From the NCBI GenBank assembly GCA_030740765.1, contig JASLWR010000028.1, positions 6,958 through 38,957 on the forward strand: a stretch of DNA of 32,000 nucleotides, given 5' to 3'. The position numbers were made by a program, and so were the translations under genes. The stretch comes from Thermoplasmatota archaeon. Lineage in GTDB: Archaea > Thermoplasmatota > Penumbrarchaeia > JASLWR01. The notes beneath the pieces are model-generated. The model saw only the letters and a program-made list of their open reading frames with translations, was not told the origin of the DNA and did not search any database. Shown here piece by piece: positions 7,447 to 29,438 of the stretch (position 1 is its first letter; each line of letters opens with the position of its first letter).

Positions 7447-8463
7447 ATGGAAATGATCAAGGATTTTATTAAGATGATGCGACTTCATCCGCCCTCCTGG
7501 TGGGGCGAATACGCTTTATTTTCGATCATCGTTCCCTGCGCCCTGCTGTTCCATGAAAACCAAATGTCTCTCGATATTTCGAAGCTCCTACCGTTGCTCG
7601 GAATACTTTTTACCGGTTATTGCTCCACCTTCGTGCTTAACCACATTACCGATGTGAAGGAAGATAGTTACAAGGAAAACCAACCGTTGATGACTGATGG
7701 AAAGATAAGGCGAGCCCTATTTCTATGGATCTCGTTGATTATCGCAGAAATCGCTATGGCTTTGATATTTTTCAATATAACGGCATTGGTGCTTCTGGGT
7801 ATACTCCAACTTCTTTCCATCCTTTATTCGTGGGGGATACGTCTCAAAGAAAGCATTGCAGGTCCTCTGGTAGGCTCCACTTTCTACTGGGGACCAATAC
7901 CTCTGGTTGTAGTGGTATTGCTTGGAACGAGTGGATTTGGAATATGGAAATGCTTCACCACGCCAATGATGATCCACATCCTCGCCATGTTCTTTTTTGG
8001 GATTGAACGTGAACTTACACATAATCTCTTTGATTTTGATATCGACCGGAAGGCCGGGATCACCACCTTTGGACAGATCGTCGGCGTTAAGCGAACGAAA
8101 ATCATTATTCGAGTCATGAAAGGTTTCTTTCTTATATCGATGCTAGCCCTGGGTTGGGCCATATCCCTCTCGTTTTCAGTGCTGGTGCTGCTCTTCGCTT
8201 TATTGGGTGTCGCAGGATTTATCCCTTCATTCTATTTCTTTTCCCTATTAGCTGTGGGACTATTATTATCAGGAAGAACAGGTGTGGCTGAGATCCTTCT
8301 CCTGTTCTGCATGATACCTGCTATTTCAATGTACGTCACAAAATTGGTTGAAAAAACGAGAGCCGGGATCCACCAGGGCACAGCTGCGGCGAGAAGGATA
8401 TTAAACGATATTCATGCACAGCATCGCAAATTAATTTTTACAATCTTTGAGAGAATCAAATGA
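7447..8463 (+). CDS. UbiA-family integral membrane prenyltransferase
   Basis: The first Asp-rich motif is LNHITDVKEDS (NxxxDxxxD with His in place of the usual Asp/Gln) and the second is DFDIDRKAG. The protein is multi-TM. I prefer the ATG at 7447, which follows a GGGGAGGA SD, over the TTG at 7366 in the track. Confidence 0.8.
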   Translation: MEMIKDFIKMMRLHPPSWWGEYALFSIIVPCALLFHENQMSLDISKLLPLLGILFTGYCSTFVLNHITDVKEDSYKENQPLMTDGKIRRALFLWISLIIAEIAMALIFFNITALVLLGILQLLSILYSWGIRLKESIAGPLVGSTFYWGPIPLVVVVLLGTSGFGIWKCFTTPMMIHILAMFFFGIERELTHNLFDFDIDRKAGITTFGQIVGVKRTKIIIRVMKGFFLISMLALGWAISLSFSVLVLLFALLGVAGFIPSFYFFSLLAVGLLLSGRTGVAEILLLFCMIPAISMYVTKLVEKTRAGIHQGTAAARRILNDIHAQHRKLIFTIFERIK

Positions 8464-8551
8464 AAACGCCTGTCGACCCGCAGCGGAAAAAAAGAAAAAA
8501 AATGTTAAAATACATGCAAAACATTATCCACTACAGATTGGTGATGACAAA

Positions 8552-9856
8552 ATGCAAAGATTGAATTATTACGAAATACTCGGCGTCTCCTCCGGAGCAG
8601 AGACGAAGGAAATAAAGAAAGCTTACCGGAGAATGGCCGAACTTCATCACCCGGATAAAATGAATACCAATGATGTCAAGCTAATCGAACTTGCCACAGA
8701 GGAAATGATTTTGATCAACGAGGCCAAAGATATTCTTCTCGACGACCAAACCCGCCGTAAATATGATCTGGAAATGCAAAATACGAGTTACATCTCGGGG
8801 CGGCAAGAAGAGGAAAATGCTCTCGTAAAGATGATAGTGCAGTCCCAAAACGTCCTTTCCAGTATCGGGGAATGCGGGGTGGATATTAAGGAAGCTGAGA
8901 AGTATTTCTTTCAGGCCAAGTATGCTTTCCAGAACCGATACTACAGGAACGGTCTCGAGCTTCTTCAATATGCTGTAAGATCGGCAAGAGATGCTCATTA
9001 CCAGTTTGCAGTGAGAGAGATCCTTGCGGCCCGAAACCGGATATTGGCGGTGGCTGAAGAAGGCTACAACGTGGATTTTGCAAAGAACATTCTCATCCAG
9101 GCAAAACCAGCCATAGAGGACGGGAACTACGAACAGGCTACAGAGTTCGCAAAAGCGGCTGTGAAAGCATCCAAAAAGATTAAGGAAACGGAAAAGGAGA
9201 TAACAAGGCAGGGTTACACGCCACCATCGGAAGAGGATGTATTTGCTGCAACTGCTGCGAGTCCAAAAAGTATGAACGTGAGTTGGGATGCGGCACCAGT
9301 TTCTGAAAAGGAAAAGATGGAAATATCCATCACATCAGCAAAGGATTACGTTGACCATCTGACTGAGGACGAGTTCAATGAAGTGAAGATACTCATGGCG
9401 GAAAAAGAGAAGGAAATAAGGATGAAGAAAAGGCTTGAGCGGGATTTCATAAAGATAGAGATCGCCTCTAGATACAAAGATATCATGAAGAGGTTTCAGG
9501 AATACCAGCGAATGGAGGAGGAGACCATCCATGAGATCCTCGAACGGTATGAAGGGGGGAAGAAGGATGAAATGGATTTCGACCTGGACCTGGGCAATAT
9601 GGAGTTCATCGATGACAAAGACATTCCCAAGGAGGACAAGGAAGTCATCGGAGCCGATTGGGATGAGGCGGAGAAAACGAAGAAAAAACTTGTCTATAAA
9701 TCCGTACTGACCGAGGCATGGGCCGACGGCGTGGTGACAGAGGATGAGGAAGCCATGCTGGAACAGCTCAGGGCTTCTCTTGACCTTCCCATTGACGAAC
9801 ACCAGAAAATGGAAGAGGACATAATAAAGAAATTACTGCTGAACAATTATCTATGA
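8552..9856 (+). CDS. J-domain protein with long helical middle and TerB-like C-terminal segment
   Basis: The J domain is NYYEILGVSSGAETKEIKKAYRRMAELHHPDK (HPD present). The C-terminus, LTEAWADGVVTEDEEAMLEQLRASLDLPIDEHQKM, resembles TerB/DjlA-type helices. The ATG at 8552 follows a GGTGAT SD; the track start at 8447 overlaps the UbiA gene. Confidence 0.88.
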   Translation: MQRLNYYEILGVSSGAETKEIKKAYRRMAELHHPDKMNTNDVKLIELATEEMILINEAKDILLDDQTRRKYDLEMQNTSYISGRQEEENALVKMIVQSQNVLSSIGECGVDIKEAEKYFFQAKYAFQNRYYRNGLELLQYAVRSARDAHYQFAVREILAARNRILAVAEEGYNVDFAKNILIQAKPAIEDGNYEQATEFAKAAVKASKKIKETEKEITRQGYTPPSEEDVFAATAASPKSMNVSWDAAPVSEKEKMEISITSAKDYVDHLTEDEFNEVKILMAEKEKEIRMKKRLERDFIKIEIASRYKDIMKRFQEYQRMEEETIHEILERYEGGKKDEMDFDLDLGNMEFIDDKDIPKEDKEVIGADWDEAEKTKKKLVYKSVLTEAWADGVVTEDEEAMLEQLRASLDLPIDEHQKMEEDIIKKLLLNNYL

Positions 9857-10965
9857 GGTTGGGAACCATCGCAATACGTTATAATAAACTCTTTTTTGAA
9901 TTTTTCGAAATTACCCTTGTCAATGGAAGCCCGAATATTTTTCATCAAGCGCATCATGAAGTGAAGATTGTGGACGGTTAATAATCTCATTGCCAGCAGT
10001 TCCTTGACGCCAAAGAGATGGTGAAGATAGGCTCGCGAGTAACATTTGCATGTGGAGCAATCGCATTCTTCATCGATCTTTTCTATTCGTCCCTTGAAGC
10101 CTGACGAGTTGATGTTCACGGATCCCTTATTCGTAAGCATGGTCCGGTGCCTCGCATTCCTGGTGGGATAGACACTATCGAATATATCAACTCCCTTTTC
10201 CACCGCCAAAATAATATCCACCGGCGTTCCCACACCCATCAGATATTTCGGTCTGTCGCGGTGCAGGATGTCCAATTGGTACCCTGTGGCCTTGTGCATT
10301 TCCACTTTGGACTCCCCCAGGCAGAGGCCTCCTATCCCGTATCCATCGCATTCGATTTTATTCAATTCTCTTGCACTCTTCTGGCGGTAACTGCGACTGG
10401 TGCCTCCCTGGGCAATGGCAAATTTCATCTGGTCCGGTTTTTTATGGGATTCAGAGAACTCTCGGGCCCACCTAGTGGTTCTTACAACTGCCTTCTCTAC
10501 CCGGGCGTCGTTGCTGTTAAGGGGAGCGCAGTCATCAAGGAACATAGCGACATCAGCTCCAATCTTCTCCTGCATACCGGAGGAAAAGTCGGGTGTTATC
10601 AACTCCTGACGTCCGTCAAAGGGACTCTTCAGCATTATTCCTTCCTCTGTCACCTTTGGTTTGAAACCGTCTCGAACGATCTGAAACCCCCCCGAATCGG
10701 TGAAGCTACTTCTTGGCCAGTTCATGAAACCGTGAAGCCCACCCGCCTTGTCTATTACCTCCGTTCCCGGCCTGAGGTGAAGCAGGTATGCATTCGCAAT
10801 AATGTTCTGCACGTCTAGCTCCAGAAGATCGCCTGCGGACATGGTTTTCACCGATGCCTTGGTTGCAACCGGCATGAAAACCGGTGTTCTTACATCTATA
10901 TGTGAAGTATGAAGAATGCCCGTCCGGGCCCCCTGGGGGCCAGCTTCATTTACCACCGTAAACAT
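9847..10965 (-). CDS. tgt: tRNA-guanine transglycosylase, bacterial (queuine/preQ1) type, 372 aa
   Basis: Colinear with E. coli Tgt from memory: ARTGIL, TPVFMPVATKASVK, LHLRPG, GLHGFMNWPRSSFTDSGGFQI, FLDDCAP, AIAQGG, DGYGIGGLCLGE, PKYLMGVGTPVDI, FDSVYPTRNARH, zinc site CDCSTCKCYSRAYLHHL, LTVHNLHFMMRLM. The ATG at 10965 follows GTGAGGA. The GTG at 10977 in the track is an alternative start. Confidence 0.9.
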   Translation of the reverse strand: MFTVVNEAGPQGARTGILHTSHIDVRTPVFMPVATKASVKTMSAGDLLELDVQNIIANAYLLHLRPGTEVIDKAGGLHGFMNWPRSSFTDSGGFQIVRDGFKPKVTEEGIMLKSPFDGRQELITPDFSSGMQEKIGADVAMFLDDCAPLNSNDARVEKAVVRTTRWAREFSESHKKPDQMKFAIAQGGTSRSYRQKSARELNKIECDGYGIGGLCLGESKVEMHKATGYQLDILHRDRPKYLMGVGTPVDIILAVEKGVDIFDSVYPTRNARHRTMLTNKGSVNINSSGFKGRIEKIDEECDCSTCKCYSRAYLHHLFGVKELLAMRLLTVHNLHFMMRLMKNIRASIDKGNFEKFKKEFIITYCDGSQPHR

Positions 10966-11031
10966 GTAATTCCTCACGAATGGTTTATCGTATTTACTTC
11001 TGGTTGTCGTAATTCTTACGAAAACGTTATT

Positions 11032-12204
11032 ATGATTATTTGTATATTGTGCGCTTCGATATTCATGGATTTTAATGATAGTCTCAATATCATACGTTTA
11101 CTGGTCGGCCTTATAGTACTTGTGATAGGATCAGTTACGGACATCAGGACGAGAAAGGTCCCGAACCGGCTCTGGCTTATCTCCGGTGCGATCGCGTCAC
11201 TGCTCCTGGTGGCGTACATCGCTCACGAGAGTTCGAACGTTATACCAGTTCTATTGACATTGACCGTCATTTTCTATTACTATTATTTCTACTCCGACCT
11301 GGAATTCAATGGACTGCCAAAGGGAAACGACAGGTTCTTTGCGATCTTGGGTGTTGCATCCATAGGCTTCTACATATGGGCCATTTTTTATTACGATATA
11401 CCTATGAATATTTCAATCCTTCTATTGATTACCTTCGTCCTTCTCATGATAAACGAGGTCATGCTGCTCCGAAAAGGAACCAGCTCCCGGATGGCATGGC
11501 TGATATTATTAATAATGTGCTTCATAACCCTGGGATTTCTTTCTCAATACGACATCAGCTCCATCGAAAAGGGGGTGCCCATAGCCGCAACCGGGACACC
11601 TGGCTTAGACTCCTCGTTCATGCTGATCACTTCTATATTCCTTATGATAACTGCCATTTACGCGATGTACTGCTCCGGGATAATCATGGGTGGGGCCGAT
11701 GCAAAAGGATTGATGCTGGTTTCACTGCTTCTTCCTGCATACCCGGCTGTATCCGGACTTCACATGGATACCTATTTCTATGAAGTCCTTGATAAAATAC
11801 CGCTTCAAGCCTTTATTTTTCCATTCTCAATGACTATACTCATCAACGGCGCGTTGCTACTTCTCCTATATCCATTATTCTTTCTAGGATTGAACCTCAT
11901 ACGAAAGGATTTTAAATTCCCATACTGCCTATTCGGTTACCGGCTCGATCTCGATAAATTCGAAAAGAAGTTCGTATGGCTCCTGGAGATCATAAAGGAC
12001 GGAAAGAGAAAGATGGTTCTATCCCCCCCCAGGGAGAAGGCTGAGGAAAAGAAGCTATTAAAGCAGTTGGTGGATGCCGGTGAAAAGAGGATATGGGTGC
12101 AACCCAAGATACCATTCCTTGTTGCAGTGACCGTGGGCTATTTGATCGCCATCGTATTCGGCAACGCCATACATCTCATCATCAACCTGATTCCTAAGAT
12201 ATAG
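11032..12204 (+). CDS. A24-family aspartic peptidase (archaeal prepilin/preflagellin peptidase, long form with C-terminal extension)
   Basis: The two catalytic Asp motifs are GSVTDIRTRKVPN and IIMGGADAKGLM. The protein is multi-TM, with a soluble insert (KFEKKFVWLLEIIKDGKRKMV...EKRIWVQPKIPF) before the last TM, as in archaeal FlaK-like enzymes. The start is set at the ATG at 11032. The track ORF from 10909 overlaps tgt. Confidence 0.85.
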   Translation: MIICILCASIFMDFNDSLNIIRLLVGLIVLVIGSVTDIRTRKVPNRLWLISGAIASLLLVAYIAHESSNVIPVLLTLTVIFYYYYFYSDLEFNGLPKGNDRFFAILGVASIGFYIWAIFYYDIPMNISILLLITFVLLMINEVMLLRKGTSSRMAWLILLIMCFITLGFLSQYDISSIEKGVPIAATGTPGLDSSFMLITSIFLMITAIYAMYCSGIIMGGADAKGLMLVSLLLPAYPAVSGLHMDTYFYEVLDKIPLQAFIFPFSMTILINGALLLLLYPLFFLGLNLIRKDFKFPYCLFGYRLDLDKFEKKFVWLLEIIKDGKRKMVLSPPREKAEEKKLLKQLVDAGEKRIWVQPKIPFLVAVTVGYLIAIVFGNAIHLIINLIPKI

Positions 12205-14244: not shown

Positions 14245-14958
14245 ATGGTCATAGAGGTCATGGAACTGAACTGGGATGCTGAGGGCATCTTCAGGTCCAG
14301 GCCGAACCGATTTCTCTCTATTGTTGATATTATTGGACCGGAGGAGATCAAGGGAGAAATGGTTCATGTTCACGATCCCGGACGGTTGAAGGAATTGCTT
14401 TATCCCGGGAACCGAATATTGTTGAAAAAGGCGTTTGGTAAGAAAAGAAAAACGAAATGGGACGTTATAGCGGCACGATTCGAAAACGAATGGATATTGA
14501 TTCATTCAGGATACCACAGGGCAATATCGGAGAGGATATTGAGAGGGAATAATAATCCGCTGGGGCCTTTGAAGGATATCCGGCCCGAGGTGACCGTAGG
14601 GCACAGCAGATTGGATTTTGTTTGCAAGGACGAGTTTGATACGGTAATTGGAGTGGAAGTGAAAGGATGCACCCTTGCGGTGGATGGAGTGGCATTATTC
14701 CCGGACGCGCCTACCAAAAGAGGTAGAAAACATCTTGAGACGCTGATGGAGATGAAGGCATCTGGAAATAGGGCGGCCTTGATGATTCTTATATTCAGAC
14801 ATGAGGCCCGATGTTTTTCACCGAATGAGGAGACCGATCCCAGATTTACCGAAACTTTCAGAAGTGCCATGGAAGCGGGAGTCGAGGTACATCCGGTTGT
14901 ATTTCGCTATGATGGTGTGAATGTATCGTATTTGGGCACTGTACCCGTATGTGAATAA
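14245..14958 (+). CDS. sfsA: SfsA-family nuclease-like protein
   Basis: 237 aa. RPNRFLSIVDI, HSRLDFV and VEVKGCTLAVDGVALFPDAPTKRGRKHLETLM are colinear with E. coli SfsA. The ATG lies 1 nt after the arcS stop. Confidence 0.9.
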   Translation: MVIEVMELNWDAEGIFRSRPNRFLSIVDIIGPEEIKGEMVHVHDPGRLKELLYPGNRILLKKAFGKKRKTKWDVIAARFENEWILIHSGYHRAISERILRGNNNPLGPLKDIRPEVTVGHSRLDFVCKDEFDTVIGVEVKGCTLAVDGVALFPDAPTKRGRKHLETLMEMKASGNRAALMILIFRHEARCFSPNEETDPRFTETFRSAMEAGVEVHPVVFRYDGVNVSYLGTVPVCE

Positions 14959-21065: not shown

Positions 21066-21164
21066 GCCGGGGTGGCTCAGCCTGGCGGAGCGTCGGACTC
21101 ATAGGGAACTACAATCAGCTCCTGGGCTATCCGAAGGTCGCGGGTTCAAACCCCGCCCCCGGCA
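21066..21164 (+). tRNA. tRNA-Met(CAU), elongator type (or Ile2-CAU), with a 25-nt intron at 37/38 (21104-21128)
   Basis: Hand fold:
- Acceptor GCCGGGG/CCCCGGC.
- D stem GCTC/GAGC.
- Anticodon stem TCGGA/TCCGA, loop CT-CAT-A|intron|A.
- T arm GCGGG-TTCAAAC-CCCGC.
- Discriminator A; no encoded CCA.
- The intron forms a canonical BHB: a 4-bp helix C32-U33-C34-A35 with intron UGGG, flanked by 3-nt bulges UA|G and CU|A. Confidence 0.9.
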
Positions 21165-29363: not shown

Positions 29364-29437
29364 GGCTGAGATAGTGTAGCCTGGCAGCATATGGGACTGT
29401 GGATCCTCTGGCCCGGGTTCAAATCCCGGTCTCGGCC
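29364..29437 (+). tRNA. tRNA-His(GUG) with genomically encoded G-1
   Basis: Hand fold:
- G-1 (29364) opposite discriminator C73.
- Acceptor GCTGAGA/TCTCGGC (one G-U pair).
- Anticodon stem TGGGA/TCCTC, loop CT-GTG-GA.
- T arm CCGGG-TTCAAAT-CCCGG.
- No encoded CCA. Confidence 0.88.
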
Positions 29438-29438
29438 C

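Follow-up and report, generated by a model that had tools for sequence, protein, structure and literature searches.

According to the textbook division of tRNA modifications, queuosine is a feature of Bacteria and Eukarya, whereas Archaea have archaeosine. What, then, would a tRNA-guanine transglycosylase (Tgt) of the queuosine type do in an archaeon, near a gene for archaeosine synthase? The question is raised by a tgt gene in a 32,000-nucleotide stretch of DNA (here referred to as the window) from a Thermoplasmatota archaeon (GenBank assembly GCA_030740765.1, contig JASLWR010000028.1, positions 6,958 to 38,957). The window is part of a 40-kb contig (C79) of a metagenome-assembled genome (MAG) of 3.59 Mb in 158 contigs, with 93.7% completeness and 1.8% contamination. 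An initial annotation, made from the window alone, had offered two readings of the gene: horizontal acquisition of a system that inserts a base at G34, or takeover by a bacterial-type catalytic core of the step that inserts preQ0 for archaeosine at G15. The analysis presented here suggests that the genome most likely makes both archaeosine (at G15) and queuosine (at G34) from one pool of preQ0.

The window gene matches Tgt of the G34 type

The tgt product comprises 372 residues when read from an ATG codon and 376 residues when read from a GTG at position 10977, four codons upstream. All of the motifs on which the initial annotation had based its likeness to bacterial Tgt are present in the translation (TDSGGFQ, DDC, AIAQGG, GYGIGGLCLGE, YLMGVGTPVD, PTRNARH, CDCSTCKCYSRAYLHHL, and VHNLHF). 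The description of a protein of bacterial length without the C1/C2/PUA extension of archaeosine TGT (ArcTGT) also proved accurate, as Pfam found a single TGT domain at residues 12 to 363 of the 372 (440.8 bits) and neither a C2 nor a PUA domain. The comparison of profile models that had been proposed to separate the two enzyme classes gave a clear outcome: the window Tgt passed TIGR00430, the NCBIfam equivalog for tRNA guanosine(34) transglycosylase Tgt, with 409.1 bits against a cut-off of 306.75, and failed the ArcTGT model, TIGR00432, with 137.6 bits against a cut-off of 350. Among solved structures, the best match was Thermotoga maritima Tgt (2ash; 313 bits, residues 13 to 367); further matches were Zymomonas mobilis Tgt (1enu; 294 bits), mammalian QTRT1 (288 bits), and Pyrococcus horikoshii ArcTGT (1iq8; 68 bits).

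The gene is under purifying selection, with a ratio of nonsynonymous to synonymous substitution rates (dN/dS) of 0.10 against the ortholog in a genome of the same genus (G001), at a dS of ∼1.06 that is itself near saturation. The value comes from this comparison only, because dS was saturated against two further genomes of the family (G002 and G003). The window gene almost certainly encodes a functional Tgt of the G34 type that forms part of a full queuosine pathway; we infer the activity, the substrate base, and the tRNA position of the enzyme, as well as any coregulation with arcS, from sequence only.

Catalytic residues are kept and four pocket-side positions are changed

Residues of the window Tgt were mapped by alignment to the Z. 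mobilis sequence, and Z. mobilis numbering is used here; conservation was read from 73 aligned rows (37 bacterial and 36 archaeal). All of the catalytic and zinc-binding residues of the Z. mobilis enzyme are kept. The catalytic nucleophile, D280 (window D263), is invariant (73/73 rows), and the general acid/base, D102 (window D90), is conserved in 72 of the 73 rows. The structural zinc site, C318/C320/C323/H349, is found as C301/C303/C306/H332. Pocket residues D156, C158, Q203, G230, L231, and E235 correspond to window D144, C146, Q186, G213, L214, and E218, and M260 corresponds to window M243, so that the pocket is kept except at V233. Retention of the Cys of the DEC/DDC motif, which the initial annotation had pointed out, was confirmed, with window C146 aligned to C158.

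The same annotation held that the pocket departs from a bacterial consensus, GGLAVGE, and this was borne out in part. The departure is real at position 233, where Val is found in 35 of the 37 bacterial rows and Ile or Leu in all 36 archaeal rows (Leu in the window Tgt, as L216), although T. maritima Tgt also has Ile there. GGLAVGE itself is not a general bacterial consensus, since position 232 is mostly Ser (Ser in 31 and Ala in 5 of the 37 bacterial rows; Ser or Cys in the archaeal rows). Position 233 is one of four changed pocket-side positions (window 56, 145, 216, and 266; Z. mobilis 68, 157, 233, and 283). The four substitutions (L68I, E157D/H, V233I/L, and L283F/Y) split all 36 archaeal rows from nearly all of the 37 bacterial rows; they could be a signature of an archaeal Tgt branch, and they may tune base or ribose binding.

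Cys158 and Val233 form the small pocket for preQ1, which eukaryotic enzymes enlarge with Val and Gly to accept queuine. The pocket of the window Tgt is of the bacterial small type (C146 with L216), and the enlarged Val/Gly pocket of the eukaryotic type was not found in it. With C146 kept and a bulkier residue at position 233, the pocket argues for preQ1 or a smaller base and not for queuine.

Genes for queuosine and archaeosine occur in one genome

A search of the same genome for a canonical ArcTGT and for queC, queD, queE, and queF, which the initial annotation had recommended, was productive. ArcTGT, QueC, and QueF were found over their model cut-offs, and QueD-like and QueE-like proteins were found below theirs; QueA and QueH are also encoded (Table 1). 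The ArcTGT ortholog in the genome of the same genus (83% identity) is 660 residues long, combines TGT, C2, and PUA domains, and reaches 560 bits on the TgtA model. No QueG over the cut-off and no importer of the YhhQ/Vut_1 type were found in the genome (93.7% complete). The presence of QueA, QueH, QueF, QueC, and the QueD-like and QueE-like proteins together with ArcTGT makes it most likely that both modifications are made from one preQ0 pool.

In the proposed scheme, guanosine triphosphate would be converted to preQ0 by the QueD-like, QueE-like, and QueC proteins, and two branches would start from there. On the archaeosine branch, ArcTGT would place preQ0 at G15, where ArcS would then turn it into archaeosine. 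On the queuosine branch, QueF would convert preQ0 to preQ1, and Tgt would exchange G34 of tRNA-Asp, tRNA-Asn, tRNA-His, and tRNA-Tyr for preQ1; QueA would then add the epoxycyclopentanediol group, and QueH would reduce the product to queuosine. We put the probability at roughly 85% that the window Tgt is a working enzyme and carries out base exchange in a complete pathway of this kind for de novo queuosine synthesis, beside an ordinary archaeosine pathway.

Genes for the predicted substrates tRNA-His, tRNA-Asp, and tRNA-Asn were identified with ARAGORN (Table 1). Two of the four predicted substrate tRNAs (Asp and His) share the 40-kb contig with tgt, which is probably a coincidence. A tRNA(CAU) gene with a 27-nucleotide intron in the anticodon loop (positions 21066 to 21164) was matched by Rfam and missed by ARAGORN.

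tgt and its partners are widespread among relatives

The distribution of these genes was assessed in 41 relatives drawn from the genus, family, class, and phylum to which the genome belongs. Tgt scored over the equivalog cut-off in 34 of the 41, which makes the gene nearly universal in the class; QueA was found in 35, QueH in 29, and QueF in 11. TIGR00430 had a match in all 15 high-quality relatives, a tally that includes weak cross-hits of ArcTGT, and ArcTGT-type open frames of ∼640 to 740 residues are present in nearly all relatives. In an even sample of the phylum, Tgt exceeded the cut-off in 81 of 301 genomes, and 49 of 137 genera had matches at E ≤ 1e-60. In public records, genes from Thermoplasmata MAGs, Methanoperedens, Methanocellales, and Aciduliprofundum are already annotated as Tgt(34). 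The initial annotation had set the gene against the established view that Archaea lack queuosine; Tgt of this type, which 34 of 41 relatives and 81 of the 301 sampled genomes carry, is already common in the lineage and is no notable acquisition by this genome.

The genes queA and tgt are adjacent and on one strand in 28 of the 34 relatives in which both were located. They lie on different contigs in the family of the window (G000, G002, and G003); in the genome of the same genus, QueF is encoded on the same 145-kb contig as tgt. Adjacency of tgt to arcS is kept only within the family of the window. Because tgt lies beside queA in most relatives and beside arcS in one family, the position next to arcS is read as a family-level rearrangement and not as a general link.

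Three further observations were made among the relatives. In one family (f8), queH, tgt, and queA occur together (G010:C280 and G014:C201), and queH in both genomes matches its model in two segments (profile positions 1 to 71 and 62/74 to 174) separated by a gap of ∼195 bp, which suggests an insertion inside QueH. In another family (f7; relatives G009 to G036), Tgt exceeds the cut-off in ∼19 of 24 genomes and the tgt-queA pair is kept, yet the search for QueF gave 0 of 24; this family could obtain preQ1 by salvage or from another reductase, or preQ0 could be inserted instead. Several Tgt matches from other families in the phylum sample (for example, G267, G234, G264, G226, G105, and G114) contain one in-frame TAA or TGA. 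These matches may overrun the end of the gene, or the stops could reflect recoding or broken genes.

The likely base at G34

Several points weigh against a complete queuosine pathway in this genome. No experimental detection of queuosine in any archaeon was found in the literature. QueF lies only 2 bits above its cut-off, and the QueD-like and QueE-like proteins lie below theirs. QueA, QueH, and ArcTGT are encoded on short contigs of the MAG (4.3, 9.5, and 1.6 kb), so that their binning rests on the orthologs in relatives. tRNA-Tyr was not found by ARAGORN among the 35 tRNAs of the genome; since ARAGORN missed the intron-containing tRNA(CAU), the missing tRNA-Tyr is uninformative and the count of 35 genes is an underestimate. 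Finally, with Val233 changed to Leu and three more clade-wide changes on the side of the pocket, the preferred base could differ from preQ1.

That last point is the starting point of the alternative that fares best, an active enzyme that prefers another base or source, whether by inserting preQ0 or a salvaged base at G34 or by drawing on scavenged precursors. Besides the pocket-side changes, the sparse occurrence of QueF among the relatives, including the result of 0 of 24 in family f7 despite tgt and queA, and the narrow score of QueF in the genome itself speak for it. Nevertheless, we consider it improbable. QueF and the preQ0 genes are present in the genome, and no YhhQ-type importer was found in it at a completeness of 94%. 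QueA, which needs the aminomethyl group of preQ1, is encoded with a score over its cut-off. The retained C146, paired with a bulky side chain at position 233, speaks against queuine, and the change at position 233 itself is shared with T. maritima Tgt, which likewise has Ile.

Archaeal Tgts branch outside the sampled bacterial enzymes

A tree of the 73 rows was calculated with IQ-TREE under LG+C20+F+G4 with posterior mean site frequencies (PMSF) and 200 bootstrap trees. The bacterial rows were the best tblastn matches to the window protein (41 to 46% identity), five metagenome proteins were called archaeal by clustering alone, and eukaryotic QTRT1 was absent. The 37 bacterial Tgts, from ∼15 phyla and including those of T. 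maritima and Z. mobilis, form one side of a branch with a support of 100/99 that was recovered in 100% of the 200 bootstrap trees. On the archaeal side are the window Tgt, its Thermoplasmatota relatives, and the enzymes of Aciduliprofundum, Methanoperedens, Methanocellales, and Iainarchaeota. The bacterial/archaeal split was also recovered in a quick tree of 130 rows. Placement in a phylogeny, a check that the initial annotation had called for, thus set the window Tgt outside the fully supported clade of 37 bacterial enzymes; in the 73-row tree it was not placed inside that clade. With the ArcTGT catalytic domain as an outgroup, the root was not settled, the outgroup branch being ∼6 changes per site long and archaeal monophyly reaching only 73/58. 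The closest relatives of the window Tgt (59 to 84% identity) come from the same family.

From this tree we conclude that none of the sampled bacterial phyla appears to be the donor and that the gene is probably old in archaea; we make no claim on the direction or date of a transfer. We read tgt as an old trait of the lineage that has been passed on mostly by vertical descent, and not as a recent bacterial import. By score and predicted function, the window Tgt is an ortholog of the bacterial enzyme, yet one that the tree assigns to a separate archaeal branch.

Of the two readings in the initial annotation, horizontal acquisition survives only in part. A G34-type system does appear to be present (Tgt with QueA, QueH, QueF, and the preQ0 genes), but its recent acquisition by this genome does not agree with the occurrence of Tgt in 34 of 41 relatives or with a position outside the bacterial clade, and only an ancient sense of the reading remains. 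Recent import from Bacteria, or a misbinned bacterial or chimeric contig, could be suspected from the 41 to 46% identity of the window Tgt to many bacterial Tgts and from a MAG of 158 contigs with some estimated contamination. It is very unlikely in view of the bacterial clade, which holds no archaeal rows, and of the closest relatives of the window Tgt, which are in the same family. The possibility that the contig is chimeric or bacterial had been raised with the annotation as well. The contig is archaeal and nonchimeric: tgt is flanked by genes for ArcS and for an A24 peptidase whose C-terminal domain is of the archaeal type II, its gene order is repeated in the independent assemblies G001 and G003, and its G+C content (0.47 to 0.48) lies inside the range of the window (0.42 to 0.50). 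The named homologs of the two proteins, Tgt and ArcS, belong to Thermoplasmata and Thermoplasmatota MAGs, Aciduliprofundum, and Methanomassiliicoccales, and the assignment to Thermoplasmatota was accepted on this basis.

The tgt-arcS locus

The features of the locus and the related genes elsewhere in the genome are listed in Table 1.

Table 1 Features of the tgt locus and genes assigned to queuosine and archaeosine synthesis in the MAG
Feature	Location	Strand	Basis
DnaJ-like gene, neighbor of tgt	8447-9856	(+)	
tgt, G34-type (queuosine-type) tRNA-guanine transglycosylase, 372 residues	9847..10965	(-)	TIGR00430 and Pfam TGT
AT-rich spacer between the divergent tgt and A24 peptidase genes; presumed promoter region	10966..11031	.	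Sequence read
A24-type (FlaK-like) archaeal prepilin/preflagellin peptidase; neighbor outside the tRNA pathway	11032..12204	(+)	Pfam Arc_PepC_II, 58.5 bits
arcS-like, archaeosine synthase alpha subunit, 664 residues	12249..14243	(+)	DUF5591 and PUA domains (Pfam)
sfsA, close behind arcS; neighbor	14245..14958	(+)	TIGR00230, 181 bits (cut-off 126)
tRNA-His(GUG), predicted Tgt substrate	29365..29438	(+)	ARAGORN and Rfam
tRNA-Asp(GUC), predicted Tgt substrate	C79:4995-5072, ∼1.9 kb before the window start		ARAGORN
tRNA-Asn(GUU), predicted Tgt substrate	Contig C114		ARAGORN
QueA	Contig C16		NF001140, 368 bits (cut-off 324)
QueH	Contig C152		Pfam, 200 bits
QueF, unimodular	Contig C144		TIGR03139, 88.8 bits (cut-off 86.9)
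QueC, with a QueD-like gene upstream	Contig C77		211 bits (cut-off 150)
QueE-like radical SAM protein	Contig C31		Five best matches all QueE models, all under cut-off
ArcTGT, truncated by the contig end	Contig C36		TIGR00432, 528.7 bits (cut-off 350)

The A24-type peptidase gene separates the divergent tgt and arcS genes. Its product also matched Peptidase_A24 (21.1 bits; cut-off, 26.5) and NF040695 (48.8 bits), in both cases below the cut-off, and its start was placed near position 11032 according to how far the G001 ortholog aligns, the longest frame being 10909 to 12204. On the other side of tgt, the stop codon of the DnaJ-like gene falls within the last codons of tgt (positions 9847 to 9856), a convergent overlap of 10 nucleotides that leaves no room for terminators.

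The initial annotation had described the nearby arcS as bona fide. Its PUA domain and its orientation divergent from tgt were confirmed, with the two gene starts 1.28 kb apart; however, the protein scored 332 bits on the ArcS model NF040592, under the cut-off of 440. The ArcS motif (PC-X3-KPY-X2-S-X2-H) is seen in the translation as PCSFKKPYSRSKTH, and named ArcS homologs with 29 to 38% identity are annotated as archaeosine synthase in Thermoplasmata and Thermoplasmatota MAGs. ArcS proteins in the family of the window are ∼80 to 100 residues longer than typical ArcS, with ∼150 N-terminal residues outside the match to the ArcS model, and the homologs from beyond the family align over only ∼76% of the window ArcS, at the same 29 to 38% identity.

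The order DnaJ-like gene, tgt (on the opposite strand), A24 peptidase gene, arcS, and sfsA is kept in G001, of the same genus (Tgt, 82% identity; ArcS, 69% identity), and in G003, of a different genus (Tgt, 65%; ArcS, 42%). This gene order was not seen in G002, of the same family.

The second reading in the initial annotation, in which the bacterial-type core performs preQ0 insertion at G15 while ArcS or other PUA proteins contribute the RNA-binding domains in trans, draws its appeal from this locus, where tgt lies 1.3 kb from a divergent arcS in an order kept in two further genomes. It is scarcely tenable, and we have set it aside. With a canonical ArcTGT in the genome, whose G001 ortholog carries TGT, C2, and PUA domains, there is no case for Tgt substituting in archaeosine synthesis, and ArcTGT-type frames accompany Tgt in nearly all relatives. 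Moreover, Tgt goes with QueA in 28 of 34 relatives and not with arcS, and even G002, within the family, lacks the adjacency to arcS. Bacteria and phages are known to have enzymes of the TGT superfamily that place preQ0 in DNA (bioRxiv 10.64898/2026.04.08.717055), but a DpdA-like role on DNA, or another role outside tRNA, is hardly credible for the window Tgt given its equivalog-level match to tRNA Tgt (TIGR00430), no match to any PADLOC (defense) model, DpdA included, the co-occurrence of the tRNA-acting QueA and QueH, and neighbors (the DnaJ-like gene, the A24 peptidase gene, arcS, and sfsA) that are not dpd-like.

Implications and comparison with known systems

The preferred reading thus remains a G34-type Tgt that would serve queuosine synthesis in a cell that would also make archaeosine. 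The trait is real but already known as a genomic observation: it is lineage-wide, and a 2021 paper had described the three genes from other archaea. We regard it as known rather than new because of this lineage-wide occurrence and because QueA, QueH, and Tgt have already been reported in archaea (PMC8204110). What the analysis adds is a set of de novo genes that includes QueF, the separation of queA from tgt in the family of the window, the clade-wide pocket-side substitutions, and a tree that puts archaeal Tgts outside the sampled bacterial clade.

The genome is a clean candidate for the experimental proof of queuosine in an archaeon. It raises the question of how one cell shares preQ0 between two tRNA positions, and, beyond the single cell, the questions of Q34 together with G+15 in the group of the window and of archaeal Tgts as an old sister lineage of the bacterial ones. 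A broader proposal is offered tentatively, and we hold the odds to be somewhat against it: archaeal G34-type Tgts may represent no recent bacterial imports but an ancient branch apart from every sampled bacterial enzyme, with queuosine and archaeosine having long coexisted, and drawn on one preQ0 pool, in large parts of Thermoplasmatota and in other archaea. If so, the assignment of queuosine to Bacteria and Eukarya and of archaeosine to Archaea would be incorrect in their case, and the label "bacterial-type" would be a misnomer.

Among the characterized relatives, eukaryotic QTRT1/QTRT2 (6h45 and 7nq4) share the predicted target position, and the score of the window Tgt against QTRT1 (288 bits) is about equal to its scores against bacterial Tgt. 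The window pocket differs from that of QTRT1 in Cys146 and Leu216, where the queuine-accepting eukaryotic pocket has Val and Gly. With ArcTGT (P. horikoshii 1iq8 and TIGR00432), the window Tgt has in common the TIM-barrel TGT superfamily, a 7-deazaguanine base, and a match of 68 bits to 1iq8; it differs in the lack of C1, C2, and PUA domains, in a model score far under the cut-off (137.6 versus 350), and in the presence of a separate, true ArcTGT in the same genome.

The likeness to bacterial Tgt (Z. mobilis 1enu, T. maritima 2ash, and TIGR00430) extends to a single TGT domain of ∼370 residues aligned over its full length, to D102, D280, the D156/C158/G230/L231/E235 pocket, and the Cys3His zinc site, and to the partners QueA, QueF, and QueH in the genome. 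In contrast to the bacterial systems, the host is archaeal and encodes ArcTGT and ArcS as well, the window Tgt lies outside the clade of 37 enzymes and carries the four pocket-side substitutions (L68I, V233I/L, L283F/Y, and E157D/H), and tgt is unlinked from queA in its family.

No paper discussing queuosine for Thermoplasmatota was found in the literature. The nearest published case is that of Castelle et al. (2021; PMC8204110), who reported colocalized QueA, QueH-like, and Tgt genes in 34 archaeal genomes of DPANN and Methanosarcinales. The same three enzymes are found here, again in archaea, and the same inference of queuosine synthesis is drawn. The present host, however, belongs to Thermoplasmatota, and its genes are dispersed, with tgt beside arcS, whereas those of the earlier genomes are clustered. 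The genome also encodes QueF and the preQ0 genes, so that its pathway looks de novo and complete.

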